Source of the DNA: a virus | Direction: 5' to 3' (one strand) | Length of the DNA stretch: 64,000 bases | IMG/VR virus record: IMGVR_UViG_3300037418_002133 | Location: 32,001-96,000 of that record | Shown here: positions 17,348 to 31,744 of the stretch, one piece after another | Layout: each line of letters starts with the position of its first letter | Position numbering within the stretch: position 1 is the stretch's first letter | Translations under genes and position numbers: made by a program | The notes under the pieces: model-generated | Databases searched by the model: none | Told to the model about the DNA's origin: nothing | The model's input: only the letters and a program-made list of their open reading frames with translations

Positions 17348-18619
17348 TTAAATGGACAAGCCCAGGATTTTGACCTTGCGGACCGGGAAATTGTACTCGA
17401 TGCAGTAGCCGACGGCGTCCGCCGGATGCTCGAAGCCCTGGCTCTTGTCGACCTGGTCTGTGCCTGGCTTGTAAATCGTCTGTTCAAACGCCGCGATGGT
17501 GTGCTTGCAGTTCTGGTCGACCTTCAGCCGCACAGTGCCGTCACCGTCCTTAAACATGCGATTAACGGCGTTGACGCGATCGGCGACGCGCGGGTGTTTA
17601 CGGTGATGCAGGATTCGCTCAAAACCCGCCTCACGCAGAATGTCGAGGTCCGACTTGCCGCGACCTTTGGTCGTGCCGGCGGCGCCAGCCGGGTCCGGGA
17701 AGATTGTCGAGGTCTTCATCCAGCGGAAATAGCGCCGGGCCAGCTCGTCGGATGCCTCCTGGGTGTTCGACGACGCCAGCACCGCCTCGTCGACGATCCA
17801 CACCTCGCCGTTCTTCTGCGGCTGCATGATGACGCAGGACATCGGGTCGATGTTGAAGTCCATGCCGATCCAGATCGGCAACTTCGGATTGAACTTGTAT
17901 TTGCCGACGTGAATCTGGCGATCGAAGGCGTAATAGACCCGCCCCGACATGGTCTCGAAGCTCGCCTCGAACTCCTGGCGGAACGACTTTTCGTCCATGT
18001 CGTGCCGCGCGGCCGCAATTTCCGATCGCGGAATGAACGGCGAGGTAATGGTCGGAAACTGCCAGCTTTTCCAGTCGTTTAGCTTCGCCCTGCCCTTCTT
18101 TGTGCGATAGACCTCGCCGCGCTGGCCCATGACGTAAACGTCGTGCAGCCAGTTGAACGCCTTTGGCGTGCCGATGATAATGGTCTCACCGGATTTATCC
18201 GCCAGCGCCGGGCGCAGAATCTTGAAATAGGTGTCGCGATCGATGTCCTGAGCCTCGTCGATGATCAGAAGGTTGAGGCCCATACCGCGCAGGCTGTCCG
18301 GATTGTCGGCGCCTTTCAGTTCGATCCTGGTGCCGTTGTGCAGCCGGATCTCCATGCGGGTCTGATTGTAGGATTCGACCCACGCGCGCGGGATCGCCTC
18401 CTTCAGATCGTCCCAGAGAATGCCGCGCGCCATCGCGTAGGTCGGCGCCACGTACCAGATGATCTGCTTCGGGATGCAGGCGCGCTTGCAGATGATCAGC
18501 TTGCTCAGGGCGGTCTTGCCCCAGCGTCGGCCGGCAACGACAACGCGGTTGCGGTGCGTGTCGGAGAAGACCGTGCGCTGGCCTTTGTGCATCTTGAGAA
18601 GGACGGCGGGGGCGCTCAT
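17348..18619 (-). CDS. terL: Terminase large subunit
   Basis: AGRRWGKT Walker A, LIIDE Walker B, GTPK, GMDFN, DAVGY nuclease motifs. Confidence 0.95.
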   Translation of the reverse strand: MSAPAVLLKMHKGQRTVFSDTHRNRVVVAGRRWGKTALSKLIICKRACIPKQIIWYVAPTYAMARGILWDDLKEAIPRAWVESYNQTRMEIRLHNGTRIELKGADNPDSLRGMGLNLLIIDEAQDIDRDTYFKILRPALADKSGETIIIGTPKAFNWLHDVYVMGQRGEVYRTKKGRAKLNDWKSWQFPTITSPFIPRSEIAAARHDMDEKSFRQEFEASFETMSGRVYYAFDRQIHVGKYKFNPKLPIWIGMDFNIDPMSCVIMQPQKNGEVWIVDEAVLASSNTQEASDELARRYFRWMKTSTIFPDPAGAAGTTKGRGKSDLDILREAGFERILHHRKHPRVADRVNAVNRMFKDGDGTVRLKVDQNCKHTIAAFEQTIYKPGTDQVDKSQGFEHPADAVGYCIEYNFPVRKVKILGLSI

Positions 18620-19311
18620 GACGTTGGCGTATCCAACTCCATGTCGCCAAAGTCCTCGGCATCATCGCCATCATCGTCGTCGCTCTCGCGCGACGCCATT
18701 TCGTCAAGTTCGTCCTGATTGAGATCCTGGAATTGCAGGCGCGGCAGCGCCTTTTCGTCGACGTCCTTCTCGATGTCGAGCAGACGCCAGCGATTGTTCG
18801 TCATGATTTCGATCAGTTTTTCGATGCGTTGCAGTGCCTTGATGTCTGCGTCGGCGTTCGCCGGAGTTATGGCGCCGTCGGCGATCGCCTTCTGAATCTT
18901 CATCAGCGACGCCTGGTTGTTTCGCGAATGCAGGTACAGCGTCTCACGGCTCTGTTCGATCCGGCCGCGGCGCTTGCTCTCAAAAGTGGTGACCGTCACC
19001 GCGCCGTCTTCGACCTTGGTTGCGACAGCCGCAGCCATTTTCGCCGCGAGCAGGTGTCGCTTCGAGCCCTTCTTGATCAGCCGTCCCTTCATCGCGGCTC
19101 GCCGGATATGCTTGGACAGCGCCGGCATAGTGATCTTGTATTTCTCCAGGATCTCGCCGGTCTTCAGCGTTCCGTATTCGTAATGATCCTCGATCTCGCG
19201 CCACTCTTCCGCGGTCAGCCGTCGGCGCGCAGCACCTTCATCGGTCGCCGCAGCGTCCAATTCCGATGTCACGTCGGTCGTTTCGTCCGTGATGTCTGCT
19301 TCATCCATCAT
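18616..19311 (-). CDS. terS: Terminase small subunit
   Basis: HTH-like N-terminus, acidic tail, immediately upstream of terL. Confidence 0.7.
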   Translation of the reverse strand: MMDEADITDETTDVTSELDAAATDEGAARRRLTAEEWREIEDHYEYGTLKTGEILEKYKITMPALSKHIRRAAMKGRLIKKGSKRHLLAAKMAAAVATKVEDGAVTVTTFESKRRGRIEQSRETLYLHSRNNQASLMKIQKAIADGAITPANADADIKALQRIEKLIEIMTNNRWRLLDIEKDVDEKALPRLQFQDLNQDELDEMASRESDDDDGDDAEDFGDMELDTPTS

Positions 19312-19412
19312 GTAAGTCAGTTCTGACTTGTAATTGAGCCGAGTCCCATGCGTTTTCGAGCCGTCTCTTCACTATAGGTATAGATATATATCTCTACTAA
19401 GAATCTAGATTA

Positions 19413-19712
19413 TTAGTGGAGAGCTTCGCCATCTTCCGGAACTGGATCCGGCGTTGCCATGAAGACGGTAAATCCTTTTGTCGTTGGCGCGATCGTGGCG
19501 CTCCGGTTGCCGTGCCTGGTCGTGGCGATCATGCCGTGTCGCTCCAGCGCGCGCAGCGAACAGGTGATCGCCTGTTTACTGACCGGGCCGTATGACACGC
19601 CGGCACAAAGATCGTTGGTGGTGATCTCTACGCCGGTTGACGTTGCCTCGCAGATCAGCCGCATGATCTCGCGTTGTTTCCGGGAATTGGCAAATTCGTT
19701 TCGCGCCGGCAT
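19413..19712 (-). CDS. Winged-helix DNA-binding protein
   Basis: KQREIM..I...SKQAITCSLRALERHGMI..T..G wHTH pattern. Confidence 0.7.
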   Translation of the reverse strand: MPARNEFANSRKQREIMRLICEATSTGVEITTNDLCAGVSYGPVSKQAITCSLRALERHGMIATTRHGNRSATIAPTTKGFTVFMATPDPVPEDGEALH

Positions 19713-20620
19713 TACTCGCCTCGGAACGGCGCGTTAGGCGCCTGTCGGTCGAATGCGGTAAGGGGAAGACGCTGGGGAATGGTGCCGTGACGATCCGGAT
19801 TGGTCCAGATGCCGTACATTGGCGAAGCCAGCACAATCTGCTGGAGCCCCTTAATGATAGTCCTTTCGGACATGGCGTCAACCCTGCCCTGTCCGCGGTC
19901 GCGATTGTTGCCAGTCTTCTCAAGCGCGGAATGGCGATAGTAGAAGTCCTTGCAGAGCTGCAACAAACGCTCGCGCTCGGCCGGCGGTTTGGCTTGCAGC
20001 TCGGCCAGGATTGCCTCGAAATCCTGCGGACTGCTCTCGAAATGGGTCCGGAAGAACTTCAGCCCGATCTCGTATTTGTTGGCGTTCAACGGGCGCACGA
20101 AGCGAAAGCCCGCCTTCTGGCCGAACAGATTGAACTTCGACATCGAGGACTGGATCTCCATGAAGGTGTTGCCCTCCATGCGCGAGACCAGGTTCATCAT
20201 CCGGTAGCCGCAGCCGATGCCGCGATACATGGTGTCCACGACGAACCGCGAGACCACACGGAAGTTCTTGTTGATGAACTTGTACCGATAGGTGTTGGTG
20301 ATCTTGGTGTCGCCGGCGCCAGGCTTGAGATTCTTGAACACCAGATGCCGCTCCTTGAGCAGCCCCTTCGGGTTGCCGGTGACCAGCACGCCAATGGTCT
20401 CGCCGAACAGCGTCAGTTTCCAGAAATGCGGCCCGATCGGCAGGTTTTCCGCCTTGTAGTGAAGATCGTGCAGCAGATTCCAGTCAGAAATGTCTCCCTT
20501 CTCGACAAACATGCTCTCAAGCAGCGGGAAACAGGGCGCCGGTGCGTCCACACGCTCTATCAGCGTATCATATGCGTCAGCACTCTCGGACGCACCGGTG
20601 AGCTTCTCTGCGAACGGCAT
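19712..20620 (-). CDS. GNAT-fold acyltransferase-like protein
   Basis: LHY; ISRFVVDTMYRGIGCG-type acyl-CoA motif A (VSRFVVDTMYRGIGCG); MSKFN.F..KAGF. Confidence 0.75.
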   Translation of the reverse strand: MPFAEKLTGASESADAYDTLIERVDAPAPCFPLLESMFVEKGDISDWNLLHDLHYKAENLPIGPHFWKLTLFGETIGVLVTGNPKGLLKERHLVFKNLKPGAGDTKITNTYRYKFINKNFRVVSRFVVDTMYRGIGCGYRMMNLVSRMEGNTFMEIQSSMSKFNLFGQKAGFRFVRPLNANKYEIGLKFFRTHFESSPQDFEAILAELQAKPPAERERLLQLCKDFYYRHSALEKTGNNRDRGQGRVDAMSERTIIKGLQQIVLASPMYGIWTNPDRHGTIPQRLPLTAFDRQAPNAPFRGE

Positions 20621-20622
20621 GG

Positions 20623-20928
20623 TCAGTCGACGATCTGCCAATCCTCGGCGAGAAGATCGGTCTGCGACGCGACCCACGGCACAACATCGCCTTGAGCGGT
20701 CTTCATGTCGATGTGACCGTGATACTGGATCTCGGTGCCTTCCGGGTAGATCCCCAGAAGCGGCGGGCGATTCACCTTGAAGGTCGAGCCACGCACCAGA
20801 AACAGGAACATGCCCTTGCCGTTCCAGCCGGCACGGGCGACGCGCGCTCCATCCTTGATCGCAACGAGGGCGCTGGAAAACGAAAAGCCACCCTGTCTGG
20901 TTCGCTGCGTCAAAACTTCTTCGGTCAT
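20623..20928 (-). CDS. DUF2829/Tad2-like protein (candidate anti-Thoeris signal sponge)
   Basis: F..AL..IK.G.RVAR.GWNGKGMF...PW..SQTDLLAEDW signature. Confidence 0.85.
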   Translation of the reverse strand: MTEEVLTQRTRQGGFSFSSALVAIKDGARVARAGWNGKGMFLFLVRGSTFKVNRPPLLGIYPEGTEIQYHGHIDMKTAQGDVVPWVASQTDLLAEDWQIVD

Positions 20929-21560
20929 TCTGTCTTCTCCAGTTCAACTTTCTCGCGGAAACGCTTTGTCACCTTCAATGAGGCGCCGATCTCATCCGCC
21001 AGATCGGTGTGGGTGGTCGCGACGATCAGGGTCTTGCCGAGACGCCGGGCGGTCTTCTGCATCGAATAGGCGACACACTTCGCGGTGACGCGGTCGAGCA
21101 CGGCGCCGAACTCGTCGGCAACCCAGACGTCGGCGCCCTTGTCCATCAGCATTGCCAGCTTCAGCCGGTAGCGCTGTCCGTCGGAGAGTTCATTCGGCTT
21201 GCGGATATAGATCCAGGCGTCGGAAATGCCGGCCTTCGCCAACAGATCGGCCGCTTCGGTCGTGGTGTCACCAACGCACTCGATCACCGGCTTGTCCGGC
21301 GCCTCTAGCGCGTTCAGATCGGCAACCTTGAGACCCTTCTCGATCATCTGGTCGCGCAATTCGCGCAGCAGCAGCGACTTGCCAGACCCGGATTGACCGG
21401 TGATGTAGACCACGTCGCCCTGCCTGACCTCGACTTCGAGATCGTCGTAGATCACGAAACGCTTGTCCGAGAGACCAAGTCCAAAGGCTTCGGCAACTTC
21501 CAGTACGCGCGGCGTGCGGTCGACCGACGAGCTGAAGGACTTGTTGACGAGGTATTTCAT
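20925..21560 (-). CDS. Stand-alone ABC-family ATPase
   Basis: GQSGSGKS, LSDGQRYR, ADEF, TTH; no membrane partner nearby. Confidence 0.9.
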   Translation of the reverse strand: MKYLVNKSFSSSVDRTPRVLEVAEAFGLGLSDKRFVIYDDLEVEVRQGDVVYITGQSGSGKSLLLRELRDQMIEKGLKVADLNALEAPDKPVIECVGDTTTEAADLLAKAGISDAWIYIRKPNELSDGQRYRLKLAMLMDKGADVWVADEFGAVLDRVTAKCVAYSMQKTARRLGKTLIVATTHTDLADEIGASLKVTKRFREKVELEKTE

Positions 21561-21922
21561 GCGCCGGGATCCTCGGGATCGTCATCGACGCTTTCTTCTT
21601 CCTCAATCTCGGCCAGGCGATCGCGATAACCGTCGATTTCTTCGCGAATTTTCATCTTCACCGAGTCGACCGCAAGATTGACCATCGCCAGTTGCTCGAT
21701 GGAGGTATCCATGCGGCTGACCAGCGCGCAGATCGGATTGTTCTGGTGAAGACCGGCAATAACCAGATGCGTCAGATCACCGGTCTTGATGCGCTCAAGG
21801 ATGTCCTCGCACAGCGCCAGTGATGTCTTGTCGACTTTCGGCTTACTTGCTTCGGTCGGATCGGGCGCGACAAACGCCTTGCGGGTAAAGGCGTTGATGA
21901 CCTTTGGGCTGTCGTCGCTCAT
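21557..21922 (-). CDS. Hypothetical protein
   Basis: Translationally coupled ORF in the operon. Confidence 0.6.
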   Translation of the reverse strand: MSDDSPKVINAFTRKAFVAPDPTEASKPKVDKTSLALCEDILERIKTGDLTHLVIAGLHQNNPICALVSRMDTSIEQLAMVNLAVDSVKMKIREEIDGYRDRLAEIEEEESVDDDPEDPGA

Positions 21923-22581
21923 GCTGCCTGCTCCAATACGAACAGCAGCGCGTCAACGCCGGTCTTGTCGACCTTTCCCTCGATAATGGTGAGCAATTCC
22001 CGGATCTTGCGGCTCTGCTCGACGGTAACGCGCTTGAAACCAAGCGCGTCGGAGACTGGCGCCGCGGAGTGATCGACTTCGGCTTCCTTCGCCGAATTCT
22101 CCTCTTTCTGCTTTTCAACCGCCGTGGTGATGTTATCGACGAACATGCCATCGTCGATATCGGCGAAATCCGAGGTCATTCGGGTGATCTCGCTCTCGTC
22201 GAAGCCGATCGTGTCCATGTCGAAGCCGTCCTCGGCCAGTTCGGTGAGGGCCTGCTGAAGCAATTCGGTGTCGTATTCGGTCGAGGCGACCTGATTGTCC
22301 GAGAGCCGCAAGGCGTCCGCCTCGGCTTCGGTGAGATCGTCGCGCACCACGACGGGAATCTGGGTCCAGCCCAGCGACAATGCGGCGAGCCGGCGCCCAT
22401 GACCGGTAATGATGGTGCCGTCGGGGCGAATGTTCAGAGGGTTGGCGACGCCGAATTTCTGGATCGACTTGGCGAGCTTGGCGACGTGAGCGTCCGGGTG
22501 CTTCTTGGCGTTCTTCGGATGCACGACCAACTTGTCGATCGGCCACAACACAACAGGTCGTTTGGAATCAATTGTCGTCAT
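21919..22581 (-). CDS. ParB/Srx N-terminal domain protein
   Basis: NAKKH, SIQKFG, IITGHGRRLAA, LSDN. Confidence 0.88.
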   Translation of the reverse strand: MTTIDSKRPVVLWPIDKLVVHPKNAKKHPDAHVAKLAKSIQKFGVANPLNIRPDGTIITGHGRRLAALSLGWTQIPVVVRDDLTEAEADALRLSDNQVASTEYDTELLQQALTELAEDGFDMDTIGFDESEITRMTSDFADIDDGMFVDNITTAVEKQKEENSAKEAEVDHSAAPVSDALGFKRVTVEQSRKIRELLTIIEGKVDKTGVDALLFVLEQAA

Positions 22582-22753
22582 CGTCGTTCATTCCTGAATA
22601 AATCGCCATCAATTCGTCGTCGTTGAGTTCGCGATCCTTGAATTTCTGCTCGAAAAACTCGCCAGCGCCGCAGTTTAGGCATCGCCGGGTAATTCGCGTT
22701 TCGCTGAAAAACTTGCAGTCCCGGCATTCCGGATGGCGAGGCTTGACGTACAT
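22568..22753 (-). CDS. Small Cys-rich (CxxC..CxxC) protein
   Basis: CRDC and CLNC; coupled to neighbours. Confidence 0.55.
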   Translation of the reverse strand: MYVKPRHPECRDCKFFSETRITRRCLNCGAGEFFEQKFKDRELNDDELMAIYSGMNDDDDN

Positions 22754-23404
22754 TCAGTCCTCAACGGCTCCGAAAAGCTGATGCACGAGGGCATCGCCGG
22801 CGTTCGTGAGGTCATCCGATGCGTTGAAATTCTGGCGCTTTCGGATCTTGCTGATCAGTTCGGTGATCTTCTCGGCATCGCCGAGTGTCACCTTGAAGCG
22901 CATGATGGTGTGGGTCTTCGGTGCGCGCTCGGGTTTGGGTTCGTCCGGCGCGGGCGCCTCGTCATATCCCGTCAGATCGTCGAGTTCATCGAGCGCTATA
23001 CTAACGGAATTGAAGATATTGTTGATATCGGTCTCAGTGAACGGCAGGAATTCCTTAACATTCGCGCCCTCTTCCATACTCTCCAGCATTTCAGCGAGGC
23101 GAATGGTGTCGTCGGCGCCGTAACGGGCGTTATCAGCGAGCGAAATCTTCTTCGCCTTGTCGTCGTTGATGTCGCCGAGATTGAAGATTGGAACCTGTTT
23201 CAGTCCCGCCGCCTTCGCGGCTTGCCAGCGATGTTCGCCGCCGATGATCTCGTAGGGATGATCCTCATCGTTAGTTTCGCGCACCACGATCGGCTTGAAC
23301 AAGCCAAGCCGGCGGATCGATTCCGCCAGTTTCTCCTCGTTTTCCGGAGAGACGATGTTGATGTTGAAGCTGTTCGGCCGAAGCAGGTCGATATCGACCA
23401 TCAT
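22754..23404 (-). CDS. ParB/Srx N-terminal domain protein
   Basis: PNSFN.N, SIRRLG.FKPIVVR, GGEHRWQAA; start approximate. Confidence 0.88.
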   Translation of the reverse strand: MMVDIDLLRPNSFNINIVSPENEEKLAESIRRLGLFKPIVVRETNDEDHPYEIIGGEHRWQAAKAAGLKQVPIFNLGDINDDKAKKISLADNARYGADDTIRLAEMLESMEEGANVKEFLPFTETDINNIFNSVSIALDELDDLTGYDEAPAPDEPKPERAPKTHTIMRFKVTLGDAEKITELISKIRKRQNFNASDDLTNAGDALVHQLFGAVED

Positions 23405-23486
23405 TTGAACTGGCACCGAAGCGAAAACCTTATATAAGTCAGAACTGACTTTTACATAACCACGAAGATTGGTCCTTTGCAAGCCC

Positions 23487-25079
23487 ATGCCTGAAACCAT
23501 TACCATTGCCAGCAATGCCGTCATCGCCAAGATCATCAACGCCACCAATCCGGTCAAGGATCTGGTGTCGCAATGTCTGAGCTATGTCGTTGAGGGCGCT
23601 GAATTTATGTCGGCGTTCGCAACGTCCGGCTGGGATGGGCGTTCGAGCTTCTTTGCACGGCGCACCTGTACGTTCCCGGCAGGCTTCGTGCATATGGTGC
23701 ATGGCGAACTCAAACGCGCCGGCTACGAGGTTCGCATCGTCAAGCGCCCCAATCCTTTGCCGCTCGGTCCGGAAAATCCGATCGTCGACGAGTTCGGCAA
23801 TGACGATCCCCGCTACGACTTTCAGCCTCGAACGCTGCGCCAGATCGAAAAACACGGGCGCGGCATCGTTCAGGTCGCAACGGGCGGCGGAAAAAGCAAG
23901 ATCGCCAAGCTGATCGCCATGCGTTACGGGCGCCCGACGCTGTTTCTGACCACGCGCGGCGTGCTGATGTACCAGATGAAGGACGCCTTCGAGCAGGATT
24001 GCAAGGTTCGCACCGGTGTCATTGGTGATGGTCACTGGGCGCCGACCAAAGGGTTCAACGTCGGCATGGTGCAGACCCTGGTGTCGCAGCTCGCCGAACC
24101 GGATCTCAACGCGGAGATTCGTGAAGTTCTGCGCCAGAACACCGAGAAGGGCGAGGGTCGAACCAAGGCGCAATGCACGGAACTGGGCAATCAGCGGTTC
24201 ACGCTCAAGACCAAGATTCGCGCCCGTGTCATCAAGTTCCTCGAAATGATGGAAGTGGTGATCGGCGAGGAAGCGCATGAAGCCGGCGGAAACTCCTATT
24301 ACGAGATCCTGAAATACTGCAAAAACGCCAATATCCGGGTTGCCCTGACCGCGACGCCGTTCATGCGCGAGAACATGCTCGACAATATGCGGCTGATGGC
24401 TGCATTCGGGCCGATTTTGATCAAGGTGTCGGAAAAGACGCTGATCGATCGCGGCATTCTGGCAAAGCCCTACTTCATGTATCGCTCGCCGGCGCCGCAT
24501 CCGAAGCTGCGCAAGACCTCGCCCTGGCAACGCGCCTACGAACTGGGTGTGGTCGAAGGGCCGCATCGCAATGCCGATATTGCCGCACTAGCCAAGACCG
24601 CGGCCAATCATGGTCTGTCGGTGCTTATTCTGGTTCAGCGCAAAAAGCACGGCCCCTTTCTGAAGAAGCTGCTGGAATCTCAAGGTTTGCGGGTCAAGCA
24701 AATTCAGGGCGAGAACGACCAGAACGAGCGCAAAAAGGCGCTGAACGATCTCGCGGCCGGACGCATCGACGTTCTGATCGGATCCACCATCGTCGATGTC
24801 GGCGTCGACGTGCCCTCGATCGGCATGGTCATTCTTGCTGGCGCCGGCAAGGCAGAGGTGGCGCTGCGTCAGCGCATCGGCCGCGGAATGCGCGCCAAGA
24901 AGGTTGGCCCGAACGTGGTGTTCATCGTCGATTTTACCGACGAATTGAACAAGCACCTGCGCGAGCACGCGAAACAACGCCGCGCCATCGTCGAAACAAC
25001 CGACGGCTTTGTGCAGGGCATTCTGCCAAAGGGCCAGGATTTTCCCTGGCACCTGTTCGCGAAAAAGAAAGCAGCGTGA
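23487..25079 (+). CDS. Superfamily 2 DNA helicase
   Basis: ATGGGKS, EEAH, LTATP, GVDVP, QRIGRGMR. Confidence 0.92.
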   Translation: MPETITIASNAVIAKIINATNPVKDLVSQCLSYVVEGAEFMSAFATSGWDGRSSFFARRTCTFPAGFVHMVHGELKRAGYEVRIVKRPNPLPLGPENPIVDEFGNDDPRYDFQPRTLRQIEKHGRGIVQVATGGGKSKIAKLIAMRYGRPTLFLTTRGVLMYQMKDAFEQDCKVRTGVIGDGHWAPTKGFNVGMVQTLVSQLAEPDLNAEIREVLRQNTEKGEGRTKAQCTELGNQRFTLKTKIRARVIKFLEMMEVVIGEEAHEAGGNSYYEILKYCKNANIRVALTATPFMRENMLDNMRLMAAFGPILIKVSEKTLIDRGILAKPYFMYRSPAPHPKLRKTSPWQRAYELGVVEGPHRNADIAALAKTAANHGLSVLILVQRKKHGPFLKKLLESQGLRVKQIQGENDQNERKKALNDLAAGRIDVLIGSTIVDVGVDVPSIGMVILAGAGKAEVALRQRIGRGMRAKKVGPNVVFIVDFTDELNKHLREHAKQRRAIVETTDGFVQGILPKGQDFPWHLFAKKKAA

Positions 25080-27295: not shown

Positions 27296-27931
27296 GTGAT
27301 AGCAATCGCCTGTCTGTCGCAGAAAGGCGGGGTCGGTAAATCGACCCTCGCCCGGCTCATCGCCAAGACCTATGCCTCGGGGCAATGGCGGGTCAAAATC
27401 GGCGATTTTAACGTCAAACAGAAAACCTCGGTCGATTGGGCGGCAATCCGGCTCAGTCAGAACGTCGAGCCCGAGATCCAGGCCGAAGCCTTCAACGACG
27501 TCACCAAGGCCATGCGTGACGACTTCGACCTGATGGTGTTCGACGGCAAGCCCGATTCAGACACCCAGACCATCCGGCTTGCCCAGGAAAGCGTCCTTAC
27601 GGTCATTCCAACCGGGGTCTCCTCGGACGACCTGGTGCCACAGGTGCGGTTCGCTCAGGAGCTGAAGATCCGCGGCATCGACAGCCGCAAGATCATCTTC
27701 GTCCTCAACAAGACCACAGACTCGCTCGCAGCCATCATGGATGCGCGCAACTTCCTCAAGACGGCCGGCTTTACAGTGGCGAAAAGCTGGCTCCCGATGA
27801 AAACCGCCTACATCAACGCCCACAATTCCGGTCGAACGTTGTCGGAGACTGACTTTCCGACCCTCAACGATCGTGCCGAAGCTCTTGCACAGGAGATCAT
27901 CGACCATGTCACCAGCCTCGAACGGGCCTGA
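27296..27931 (+). CDS. parA: ParA partition ATPase (short type Ib/ParF-like)
   Basis: QKGGVGKST deviant Walker A; 211 aa without N-terminal HTH. Confidence 0.92.
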   Translation: MIAIACLSQKGGVGKSTLARLIAKTYASGQWRVKIGDFNVKQKTSVDWAAIRLSQNVEPEIQAEAFNDVTKAMRDDFDLMVFDGKPDSDTQTIRLAQESVLTVIPTGVSSDDLVPQVRFAQELKIRGIDSRKIIFVLNKTTDSLAAIMDARNFLKTAGFTVAKSWLPMKTAYINAHNSGRTLSETDFPTLNDRAEALAQEIIDHVTSLERA

Positions 27932-28671: not shown

Positions 28672-29084
28672 CCTGCGACAAGGTTAGGGCAATATTCCTA
28701 TTGGTGCGGGGATCCGGATGATGTATCCGGGAGTTGGCATGGGTCAATTCTTGTGACAAGGTTAGGACGGAAAAGCTGTCGAGGGGCCAGAAGGCAATGC
28801 CTTCGCTGCATCGCACAAAAACCTAAGACATCGCATCTGTTGCAATTATGCAACACACGACGCGTCCCGCGAAACGCGTGACATTTCCGCAACACAGCGT
28901 TTCTTGCGATTCTGTGTTTGTGCAGCGCACAATAAAATAAACACGATTTCGCATTGCAACATGCTATGCGCAAAATGCATAACACGATTTAGTTAAGTAG
29001 TGATAATTATGTCACACGTGCTGCTGCAACAAATCTGTAGCATGATCAAGTCACGAATTGTTACACTCTGTAACATCATGTGAT

Positions 29085-29113
29085 TTGTTCGCGTTGCTGT
29101 AACACGTTATAAC
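29085..29113 (+). promoter_or_regulatory. Putative sigma70 promoter of the GG/CC-free cassette
   Basis: TTGTTC-17 bp-TATAAC about 50 bp upstream of ATG 29161. Confidence 0.4.
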
Positions 29114-29160
29114 TTAGTCACGTTAGCAATGACGCTAACACTACAGAGTGAGAAACGACG

Positions 29161-29778
29161 ATGACGAAAGTTAATGACAAGATCGCGAACTACGTTGCAG
29201 AACTCAACAGCGCGCTTGACGCTCGCGCTTCGTATGAACACGACAAGAGCGCTGCGAACGACTCGATTCAGACGTGCATCGCAGCGCTTCGTAAGAGCGT
29301 CACACACGTCGATATTGCGAGCGTGCTACTCTCATGCGACGTCGATTCAAACTTCATCAATCGCAGCGAGCGTTCGAATAATCGTTATAACGTCTACGCT
29401 GCACAGAAAGTCGACAACGTCGCGCGCGCTGTCAAAAGCGTTGCAGAACTGAATCACTATTCGCTTGCGATCTTGCGCGTTGCGCTCGCTGTCGAAAAGA
29501 TCGACTCTAAGCTGTCGCACAAAGACGCTGTAGCAGCGTGCAGCGCGTCTGTGAAGCACAGCGACGCGAAGCGCGAATCAATCATCAAGTCGCTACGCTA
29601 CGCAAAGCACGTCGCTGCAAATACAGCGTCAACGCAATCGTCGTCGTCGATTAACGCGCTTCAAACGTGTCACATTCTGAGCGAAGCGCGCGATGCTGCG
29701 AACAACATCGTCTACAGCGTCAATCGCGAGAGCGAAGCGTTCAAGACGCTCGCGAAGAGATACGAACTCGCGATCTGA
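29161..29778 (+). CDS. Gly/Pro/Trp-free protein, paralogue of 32079-32888 (putative DNA-binding)
   Basis: Aligns by eye with the 32079 product (FINRS..RYNVYA; TASTQSSS..ALQT); gene has no GG or CC. Confidence 0.8.
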   Translation: MTKVNDKIANYVAELNSALDARASYEHDKSAANDSIQTCIAALRKSVTHVDIASVLLSCDVDSNFINRSERSNNRYNVYAAQKVDNVARAVKSVAELNHYSLAILRVALAVEKIDSKLSHKDAVAACSASVKHSDAKRESIIKSLRYAKHVAANTASTQSSSSINALQTCHILSEARDAANNIVYSVNRESEAFKTLAKRYELAI

Positions 29779-29859
29779 CAACGCAATGCAGAGTGACGCT
29801 TCACAGCGTCACTCTGTAACATCACTTAATCAAGTCACCGCAAACACAGAGCTAGAACA

Positions 29860-30045
29860 ATGCAGCATGAGAAACGACTAATGAAGCAACGCGAATCAGC
29901 GCGCGTCGAAAAGTACAAGCGCGCGTTTGACTGCGACTCTGTTGACGCTGATTATCTATTCGACGACGTCGCACGCGACTGTGACGCGACGTTAGCAGCG
30001 ATCGAACTGCGAGAATCGATCACGCGCTACGCGATAGCGCACTAG
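29860..30045 (+). CDS. Small Gly/Pro/Trp-free hypothetical protein
   Basis: 61 aa ORF within the island, followed by a hairpin. Confidence 0.5.
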   Translation: MQHEKRLMKQRESARVEKYKRAFDCDSVDADYLFDDVARDCDATLAAIELRESITRYAIAH

Positions 30046-30380
30046 ACGCGTGACATAGTCGAAAGTCTATAGACGAAAGTTTATTAGACTTTCGACTGTG
30101 ACATTTAAGCCTCACTGTTGCTCTGAAGCCACTGTGGTATGCCCGCCACAGTGGCATTTTTGCCACAGGCGAACCCCATGGGGAGGGTAAGGCAGACCTG
30201 AAATCCCAAGGATTTCAAGCGGTCTGCCGATCCCATGGATCCCACCGGTTCCTAATCCCATACCTAGTGACCGGTTCCCATGCCCATCCATGGCGATCGG
30301 TTCCGGACGCCAAAACCCATGGCAGGCTTCCTTGCCGGACAGGGCACCCATAGCAGGCGCCCTCTCCTTTTGGCTGCTGG

Positions 30381-30866: not shown

Positions 30867-31123
30867 TTTCGATCTCCGTGTTTGCTCAACACAAAGATCG
30901 TCGCATATCGCCTTGTGGGATGCGGTCGGGCGTATAAGGCGAGTTTATACGGCCTGGCGTTTACGGACCGGCCTGGCGATGGAAGACGGCCTGGCCGAGG
31001 ATGACCGGACCGGCCTGAAGCCCATGGAGCGCCATGCCTGCCCATGGAGGACCGAGGGATCTCTAAGGGCGCGTAAAACCCTATAGATATATAAATATAT
31101 CTATAGGGTTGGGATGCGAACGG

Positions 31124-31390
31124 CTACGCGAGGCAAAGCTCGCTGGACTGACGGGCTGCTTCTTCGATGCACAGCGCGACGAGGTGCTGGGCGTTGAAGG
31201 CTTTCTCGTGGAGCATCGCTTCGTTGATCGCGGGATCGATCTTGCTGATGGTCATTTCGTTGGTGTCGTAGTTGTAGGACGACGTGAACAGCACGGTATC
31301 TTTGTAGATCGCGCTGAAGGCGCATTCGGGGTTCATCGGGTGCGCGTCGTTGGAAAGCTCGATCTTGATGGTCTTGAGGGTGCTTTGCAT
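31124..31390 (-). CDS. Hypothetical early protein lacking Gly and Trp
   Basis: Promoter motif upstream; GAGAG RBS. Confidence 0.65.
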   Translation of the reverse strand: MQSTLKTIKIELSNDAHPMNPECAFSAIYKDTVLFTSSYNYDTNEMTISKIDPAINEAMLHEKAFNAQHLVALCIEEAARQSSELCLA

Positions 31391-31453
31391 GTTAGCTCTC
31401 GTTTGTGTGAACGTGAGAACTATCTCACGTTCACTTTTGGGATGCGAACGGGC

Positions 31454-31744
31454 TCAGACGGTCATGTCGAAGGAGATCTTCATGGTCTCGTCGACGATCA
31501 GCTTGCGGAGGGTTTCACTGGAGTTGCAGCGGTAGTAGACGCTGTCTCCCGCAGCAGCTTGCGCGTCGTTGGGATCGAACTCGCTGTCATGGAGCTGCGT
31601 GACGCGCACAGCGAAGCATTTGGTGTCGTCTTTGGCGATCGCGCACGCTTCGATGACGGTCCTTTGGTTCATGACGGAGAAGAAGCGCTCGCCTAAGTCT
31701 TGCGACATGAGGGAATCGAAAGTGGTTTTGTCGATCTGGTGCAT
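31454..31744 (-). CDS. Hypothetical early protein
   Basis: Start MHQIDK at 31744, downstream of operator and TATACT. Confidence 0.65.
   Translation of the reverse strand: MHQIDKTTFDSLMSQDLGERFFSVMNQRTVIEACAIAKDDTKCFAVRVTQLHDSEFDPNDAQAAAGDSVYYRCNSSETLRKLIVDETMKISFDMTV

Follow-up and report, generated by a model that had tools for sequence, protein, structure and literature searches.

The stretch of DNA analysed here, which we call the window, comprises 64,000 nucleotides, bases 32001-96000 of IMG/VR record IMGVR_UViG_3300037418_002133, a viral sequence of 116,086 bp bounded by direct terminal repeats and known from metagenome contigs only. Its gene order places it in a supergroup of ~103-122-kb siphophages and phage-plasmids whose members include Salmonella phage SSU5, the Rhizobium phages RHEph10, V1VFA-S and B1VFA, and Pseudomonas phage nickie; among genome assemblies, contigs of ~110 kb from Rhizobiales, Faunimonas, Methylocystis and Ancylobacter among them, carry the closest copies. 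Our subject is a run of eight minus-strand genes, from 23404 down to 19413, that leads into the terminase genes, encodes two ParB-like proteins, an ABC ATPase and a GNAT-fold protein, and may specify an enzyme that acylates phage DNA.

The first gene of the run encodes ParB1 (22754-23404; 216 aa; ParB/Srx N-domain; PF02195, 6e-17; phrog_723, 1e-58). There follow genes for a 61-aa zinc-ribbon protein with four cysteines (22568-22753; CxxC-N11-CxxC), ParB2 (21919-22581; 220 aa; ParB/Srx; PF02195, 7e-7; phrog_930, 5e-63), an acidic-tailed protein of 121 aa, p121 (21557-21922), a soluble ABC ATPase of 211 aa (20925-21560; PF00005, 1.6e-12; phrog_293, 2e-42), a Tad2-like (DUF2829) protein (20623-20928; PF11195, 1.8e-25), a predicted GNAT-fold acyltransferase of 302 aa (19712-20620) and a probable winged-helix (wHTH) protein of 99 aa (19413-19712; phrog_900, 5e-7; a weak MCM4_WHD match, E 0.002, falls under the Pfam cut-off). 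After a 100-bp gap the same strand continues with the gene for a terS-like DNA-binding protein (18616-19311; phrog_867, 1e-20), which overlaps the start of terL, the large terminase gene (17348-18619; Terminase_6N, 5e-9; phrog_2, 2e-53); the next same-strand gene past terL is a long open reading frame (ORF), probably for the portal, kept in all 14 relatives. A preliminary description of this DNA had listed two ParB genes, a CxxC protein, an ABC ATPase, a GNAT and a wHTH as co-oriented into terS and terL: all are present within its coordinates, though the p121 and Tad2-like genes had been overlooked. The Tad2-like gene lies concealed beneath a 411-aa ORF (19712-20947) which, read as a single GNAT gene, is an artefact: its 5' third is out of frame with the Tad2-like gene, and the start codon of the family is the ATG at 20620.

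Consecutive stop and start codons overlap or abut throughout the run, so that the cassette genes are translationally coupled as one unit, with a copy of a 12-base palindrome at either end. One copy of this palindrome, GTCAGAACTGAC, lies upstream of ParB1 at the start of the cassette (23438-23449); the next, at its end (19316-19327), stops 4 nt before the start codon of terS, and the pair thus frames the cassette. Chance would give 0.59 copies of the palindrome (GTCAGWWCTGAC) in the window; there are 16, at 2604, 8199, 9184, 13563, 14561, 17324, 19316, 23438, 25329, 31769, 40017, 49106, 55745, 57525, 60636 and 62344, and the three sites whose context was inspected each lie just upstream of a start codon. 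Its possible roles are those of an operator, a translational signal or a hairpin at gene boundaries.

The ABC ATPase carries every motif of its class: Walker A (GQSGSGKS), the signature (LSDGQ), Walker B with its catalytic Glu (VWVADE) and the H-loop (TTH). Family searches of the operon and the genes on either side found none for a permease or other membrane protein, as its earlier description as transporter-less implied, and the label 'ABC transporter' does not suit it. It is ~50% identical to the N-terminal half of ~480-aa ABC-GNAT fusion proteins, many of them from Bathyarchaeia bins.

The 302-aa GNAT protein has no Pfam match, and its fused homologues match Acetyltransf_1, Acetyltransf_7 and Acetyltransf_10 at E values of 1e-3 to 2e-6, for the most part close to the cut-offs or short of them. 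Its affiliation comes instead from structure. The AlphaFold2 (AF2) model, built from 36 homologues (pLDDT 90.5), has a mixed alpha/beta GNAT fold plus a helical insert at about residues 183-265; the acyl-CoA pyrophosphate-binding motif R/Q-x-x-G-x-G/A is present as R133-G-I-G136-C-G138, with R133 and G136 invariant in the 36 homologues; and Foldseek places the nucleic-acid cytidine acetyltransferases NAT10/TmcA first (E 3e-5), with phage Mu Mom lower in the list. Together these bear out the GNAT fold that the preliminary description had proposed. Fold comparison also showed that phrog_886, labelled 'ABC transporter ATP-binding subunit' in PHROGs, is actually the GNAT; this family has no match in the 14 control genomes. 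JGI names relatives of the GNAT 'ABC-type ATPase with predicted acetyltransferase domain'.

Exhaustive HMMER searching returned 179 representatives of the GNAT, the distant ones being proteins of 450-900 aa that join an N-terminal ABC_tran domain to a weak C-terminal GNAT match. Certain His, Tyr, Arg and Glu residues are invariant in the GNAT, fused family included, and natural ABC-GNAT fusions of ~370-500 aa retain identical invariant residues. The low-GC branch of the same phage group (L028/L029) has a fused ABC-GNAT of 369 aa, which removes it as a candidate for genomes that lack both genes but have an island; another apparent case, L041, is uninformative, its contig being rearranged, with ParB_N joined to a tail protein and a transposase present. 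Because the ABC and GNAT proteins are homologous to the two halves of the fused ones, we regard them, on this homology, as one enzyme divided between two genes, whose family, of the COG2401 type, is widespread in fused form.

Both ParB proteins match PF02195 above the cut-off. ParB1 carries the motif GGEHRWQAA, in which GGxHR, like an NxR motif, is invariant in 21 orthologues, and its sequence matches in the PDB are ParB/Noc/KorB CTPases. In ParB2 the GxxR nucleotide motif takes the form GHGRR, also invariant, and the AF2 model (pLDDT 81) has Noc, ParB and KorB as its best Foldseek matches. The N-domain of ParB2 is that of phage ParB-DNA-methyltransferase fusions (phrog_498, 'DNA methyltransferase', 3e-38; PADLOC MTase_II, 1e-25). 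Natural ParB2-ABC fusions also exist, in two independent protein clusters (P0273 and P0274) that align end to end with both window proteins; given these and the ABC-GNAT fusions, ParB2, ABC and GNAT are, by the evidence of protein fusion, linked pairwise. The tie of ParB1 to the module is invariant synteny only.

The zinc-ribbon protein has no family match; it has orthologues at the same place in RHEph10 (37% identity) and Phyllobacterium, and a 60-aa ORF fills its slot in L029. p121 gave no match in Pfam, PHROG and PADLOC searches, and its slot evolves fast: similar-sized genes stand there in RHEph10 and V1VFA-S, none in SSU5. The wHTH equivalent in L029 is an 87-aa ORF with a weak PadR match.

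The module lies beside terS/terL in all 15 of the complete SSU5/RHEph10-type replicons that we examined. A conserved divergent neighbour, the plus-strand gene for a ResIII/DEAD helicase (23469-25079; Helicase_C, 7e-16; ResIII, 8e-14), keeps its place in RHEph10 and SSU5, and was preferred to an overlapping minus-strand ORF (23439-24566), which is spurious. Loci retrieved through this helicase, counted only where the flank was long enough and not rearranged, have ParB1-ParB2-ABC-GNAT throughout, with terL beyond wherever the flank reaches. Mean identity over 14 relatives is 60% for the ABC protein, the most conserved core protein of the group, and 51% for the GNAT; the portal and the helicase, with a further conserved protein of the structural module, stand at a comparable 51-52%, which argues for a central rather than an accessory role.

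Outside the group, fused ABC-GNAT genes gave at least 547 matches in viral contigs. At 32 of the 80 best of these loci a gene for a T4-type large terminase lies directly upstream on the same strand. Named phages offer several arrangements. Gordonia phage Axumite has ParB, ABC-GNAT, Formyl_trans_N and terminase in succession at the start of its genome (L242 603-2452); Leptospira phage LE3 has a ParB-like gene, ABC-GNAT, three small genes and then terL; Rhodococcus phage Jace has ParB, an ABC-like protein of the same family (its GNAT half unverified) and an aspartate decarboxylase (L244 2417-4496); and in Nonlabens phage P12024S the ATPase-GNAT gene lies a few genes upstream of a ResIII helicase. 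In the Mu-like Burkholderia phage phiE255 a tail-fibre assembly gene is followed by ABC-GNAT and Formyl_trans_N at the end of the tail operon (L243 3501-5233), presumably the position at which Mu carries com-mom. The Formyl_trans_N proteins of Axumite and phiE255 are annotated as tRNA methyltransferase or PurN; the genome studied here has no Formyl_trans_N gene. The formyltransferase and aspartate decarboxylase neighbours suggest, by analogy with base hypermodification pathways, that the acyl group is assembled, or subsequently processed, into something more elaborate.

Two sets of contigs may be mentioned beside these. In IMG/VR contigs L108-L187 (for example L182:6447-7910 and the gene that follows) a structural operon ends in terL and then ABC-GNAT; these contigs are poorly annotated, often stop 1-2 kb later, and their ABC-GNAT proteins resemble those of Bathyarchaeia bins. 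A GNAT homologue is also present on ~100-110-kb enterobacterial contigs of Yersinia pestis (L094), Kluyvera (L095/L102), Xenorhabdus (L099/L101) and Morganella (L100), so that SSU5-type elements there carry the gene.

ParB1, zinc ribbon, ParB2, p121, ABC ATPase, GNAT and wHTH make up a conserved operon that belongs to the core of the SSU5/RHEph10 supergroup, phages and phage-plasmids of ~110 kb, and we give an even chance to the reading that this cassette encodes an ATP-dependent acyl-transferase acting on nucleic acid and placing a putative mark on phage DNA. The GNAT would take the acyl group from acyl-CoA; its partner the ABC ATPase, part of the same polypeptide in many viruses, would supply ATP-driven engagement of DNA; the two ParB/Noc/KorB-like nucleotide-binding proteins would bring the enzyme onto phage DNA; and marking would take place late in infection, ahead of packaging by the adjacent terminase or during it. 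The general idea has already been put forward: Iyer et al. (2021, PMC7824862), citing Iyer, Zhang, Burroughs & Aravind (2013, NAR), predict that a GNAT coupled to an ABC ATPase acylates a DNA base, and name Tenacibaculum phage pT24 as an example. A class of phage thymidine (T) dioxygenases requires ParB-like partners, and genes for ParB and terminase often lie near such enzymes (bioRxiv 10.1101/2025.08.14.668559). The neighbourhoods found here strengthen the prediction; with the fusions and the published proposal, they also lend support to the packaging-linked DNA-acylation module of the preliminary description in its kind, the CC/GG context that it assigned to the modification being a separate matter to which we return.

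What the analysis itself establishes is gene order, folds, intact catalytic motifs, fusions, conservation and recurrent neighbourhoods; the DNA substrate, the late timing and the targeting by ParB are inferred. Some points weigh against acylation of DNA by this cassette. ParB is not an obligate partner, occurring within 8 kb at only 2 of the 80 best fused loci. We found no published report of modified DNA in any SSU5-type phage, nor any experiment on a member of the predicted GNAT-ABC system, and publications on DLP3, Klebsiella p2 and psageB1 have nothing on the ABC-GNAT module. Finally, the published GNAT-ABC prediction is computational only (PMC7824862).

The enzyme might instead acylate a protein, either one of the phage (terminase, portal or a ParB) or one of the host, RNA polymerase for example, with the ABC subunit as regulator or chaperone. 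Ranked by Z score, most structural neighbours of the GNAT are indeed protein or small-molecule N-acetyltransferases, level with Mom, and adjacency to the terminase would suit a virion-protein substrate too; phage GNATs that modify host proteins are known (PMC7824862), and the Rac acetyltransferase of phiKMV acts on RNA polymerase. The company that the gene keeps points the other way: it recurs with genes for DNA-binding ParB proteins, a kind whose N-domain is elsewhere found joined to DNA methyltransferases, the formyltransferase and aspartate decarboxylase of its relatives would suit synthesis of a small acyl donor, and the top Foldseek matches act on cytidine in nucleic acid. We consider a protein substrate unlikely.

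A more specific version of the DNA reading was proposed in the preliminary description, which tied the module to a peculiarity of base composition elsewhere in the window. An island at 28887-30110 contains one internal CC and no GG, the next-longest GG/CC-free gap in the 116-kb genome being 84 bp, and no other dinucleotide pair has a comparable stretch in the genome. The island is thus as real as had been claimed, and so is the strand-biased loss of CC reported at 31.1-31.8 kb: over 468 bp (31080-31548) the plus strand has no CC and plentiful GG, a one-sided depletion separate from the island.

In many relatives, of 38-60% GC, an island occupies the syntenic position, which is a few kb and never more than ~10 kb past the divergent helicase. 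They measure 1279 bp in V1VFA-S, 549+424 bp in RHEph10 (W01 98833-99982), 505+397 bp in the Phyllobacterium element, 1257 bp in a Methylocystis bin, 693 bp in Ancylobacter, 1002 bp in a Methylophagaceae bin, 523+253+193 bp in the Acinetobacter-type elements (41% GC) and 975 bp in the 38% GC group; coordinates of islands in relatives include L003:15625-16904, G006:C16:29571-30687, G005:C1:79963-80971, L074:829-2086, L087:577-1579 and L029:16240-17342. We scored island strength as the minimum of the local CC/GG odds ratio over all 1-kb segments, taking 0.5 or more as no island. By this measure the 15 complete replicons divide into five at 0.00-0.06, five at 0.12-0.44 and five at 0.5 or above, the last being G003, the Paracoccus, Magnetospirillum and Massilia elements, and SSU5, whose longest gap is 154 bp; the island is partial in G011 and G012, and weak in G001, G002 and G004. 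On the enterobacterial contigs that carry the GNAT, GG/CC gaps within 10 kb reach only 110-154 bp.

Joined to the module, the island yields a model in which an ATP-driven, ParB-loaded acyl-transferase would mark virion DNA at CC/GG before packaging; the GG/CC-free early operon, an unmarked bootstrap cassette, would alone be readable when infection begins from marked DNA; and lineages without an island would have changed the specificity of the writer or found another bootstrap. The recurrence of the island across so wide a range of GC fits such a model, every island-bearing genome has the module, and NAT10-type enzymes, which lead the Foldseek list, act in a CCG context. The comparison across genomes does not favour it: the operon is present in 15 of 15 replicons, so that the refuting case of an island in a relative devoid of the operon never arises, whereas the island is absolute in only five and absent from five. 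No islands were seen in 893 kb around the fused ABC-GNAT genes of other viruses, genomes with an island and those lacking one have similar overall CC/GG odds (0.72-0.85; the Acinetobacter type, 0.93), and no gene or module variant tracks the island across the 15 genomes beyond genes common to close kin. The proposed union of writer, unmodified pioneer and reader, and the co-occurrence of operon and island that was to reveal it, are thus not borne out, and the CC/GG context is left unsupported; we hold the complete model to be distinctly improbable. Since the operon is invariant and the island graded, the module does not, on this comparison of genomes, suffice to require an island and can explain it at most in part, yet it stays a suspect as the sole predicted DNA-marking activity in these genomes.

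It is very unlikely, in our estimate, that the two ParBs serve plasmid partition or KorB-like silencing, perhaps with a ParA-like protein, while the ABC-GNAT pair does something separate. The element is of phage-plasmid type, both ParBs resemble the ParB/Noc/KorB CTPase clamps, and a plus-strand gene for a ParA/MinD-like ATPase lies 4 kb away (27296-27931; CbiA, 2e-6). That gene has no ParB gene adjacent to it, an arrangement found also in RHEph10 and V1VFA-S. The ParB genes, however, belong to the late, packaging block and not to that of ParA; their order and translational coupling are fixed in all 15 replicons; ParB2-ABC fusions exist; and the association with the enzyme reaches beyond such elements, in the ParB - ABC-GNAT pairs of phages that are not of SSU5 type (Axumite, LE3) and in the ParB - ABC-like pair of Jace.

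The Tad2-like protein within the cassette scores 89.7 bits against PF11195 (cut-off 25). Its gene, here between ABC and GNAT, stands at other positions or is absent in relatives, which fits an inserted, predicted anti-Thoeris gene, and it is probably not a part of the machine. Accessory anti-defence genes are usually patchy in distribution. That the whole module is an anti-defence device acylating a host immune signal or effector, in the manner of the embedded Tad2-type sponge, finds some encouragement in that gene and in weak matches of the ABC ATPase to defence-system ATPases, but is most unlikely, for ABC and GNAT are invariant core genes, Tad2 is not, and PADLOC has no match for the GNAT.

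Were acylation of phage DNA by the cassette to prove true, its chemistry would be one so far uncharacterised among DNA modifications, its closest analogues being an ATP-coupled Mom or a DNA counterpart of TmcA, and the mark would bear on evasion of restriction and CRISPR as well as on the sequencing and cloning of these elements. The module is a core function of a very large group of phages and phage-plasmids, including SSU5-type plasmids of Salmonella, Klebsiella, E. coli and Yersinia and phages of rhizobia, Pseudomonas syringae and Acinetobacter. The database label 'ABC transporter', attached to both the ABC and the GNAT proteins, hides the system; several culturable members make it directly testable.

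Known systems resemble the module in part. The ParB/Noc/KorB CTPase DNA clamps share with its ParBs the N-terminal fold and the GxxR motif, over a Foldseek alignment of ~140 residues; the window proteins are short (216-220 aa) and are fused to or paired with enzymes, not partition ATPases, and in contrast to the ParABS arrangement the ParA-like gene lies in another block, outside their operon. Another parallel is offered by the clade E 5-methylpyrimidine (T) dioxygenases with their cognate ParB and by the DpdA/DpdB 7-deazaguanine system, in which a DNA modifier needs, or is tied to, a partner of ParB/Srx fold; the effector here is a GNAT with an ABC ATPase, and the ParBs are two paralogues.

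The ATP-dependent RNA cytidine N4-acetyltransferases TmcA/NAT10 likewise couple a GNAT acting on a nucleic-acid base to a P-loop ATPase, but theirs is a helicase-type domain and not an ABC ATPase; the DUF1726, helicase, GNAT_acetyltr_2 and tRNA-binding domains of their architecture have no Pfam matches in the module, TM-scores with the GNAT are low (0.32), and by Z they fall outside the top 50. Mom of phage Mu is a GNAT-fold enzyme that acylates N6 of adenine in DNA. Its likeness to the GNAT is at the level of fold only, tied with that of generic GNATs and with no Pfam, PHROG or PDB-sequence match, and the module differs from it in pairing the GNAT, which carries a helical insert, with ParB proteins and with an obligate ABC ATPase. 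The predicted GNAT-ABC system of Iyer et al., entered in databases as COG2401, 'ABC-type ATPase fused to a predicted acetyltransferase domain', has the same two domains, homologous halves and the same invariant residues. In the window the two are separate genes, embedded among two ParB genes, a Zn ribbon and a wHTH, and they belong to the core set of a whole phage-plasmid supergroup, directly upstream of terS/terL.

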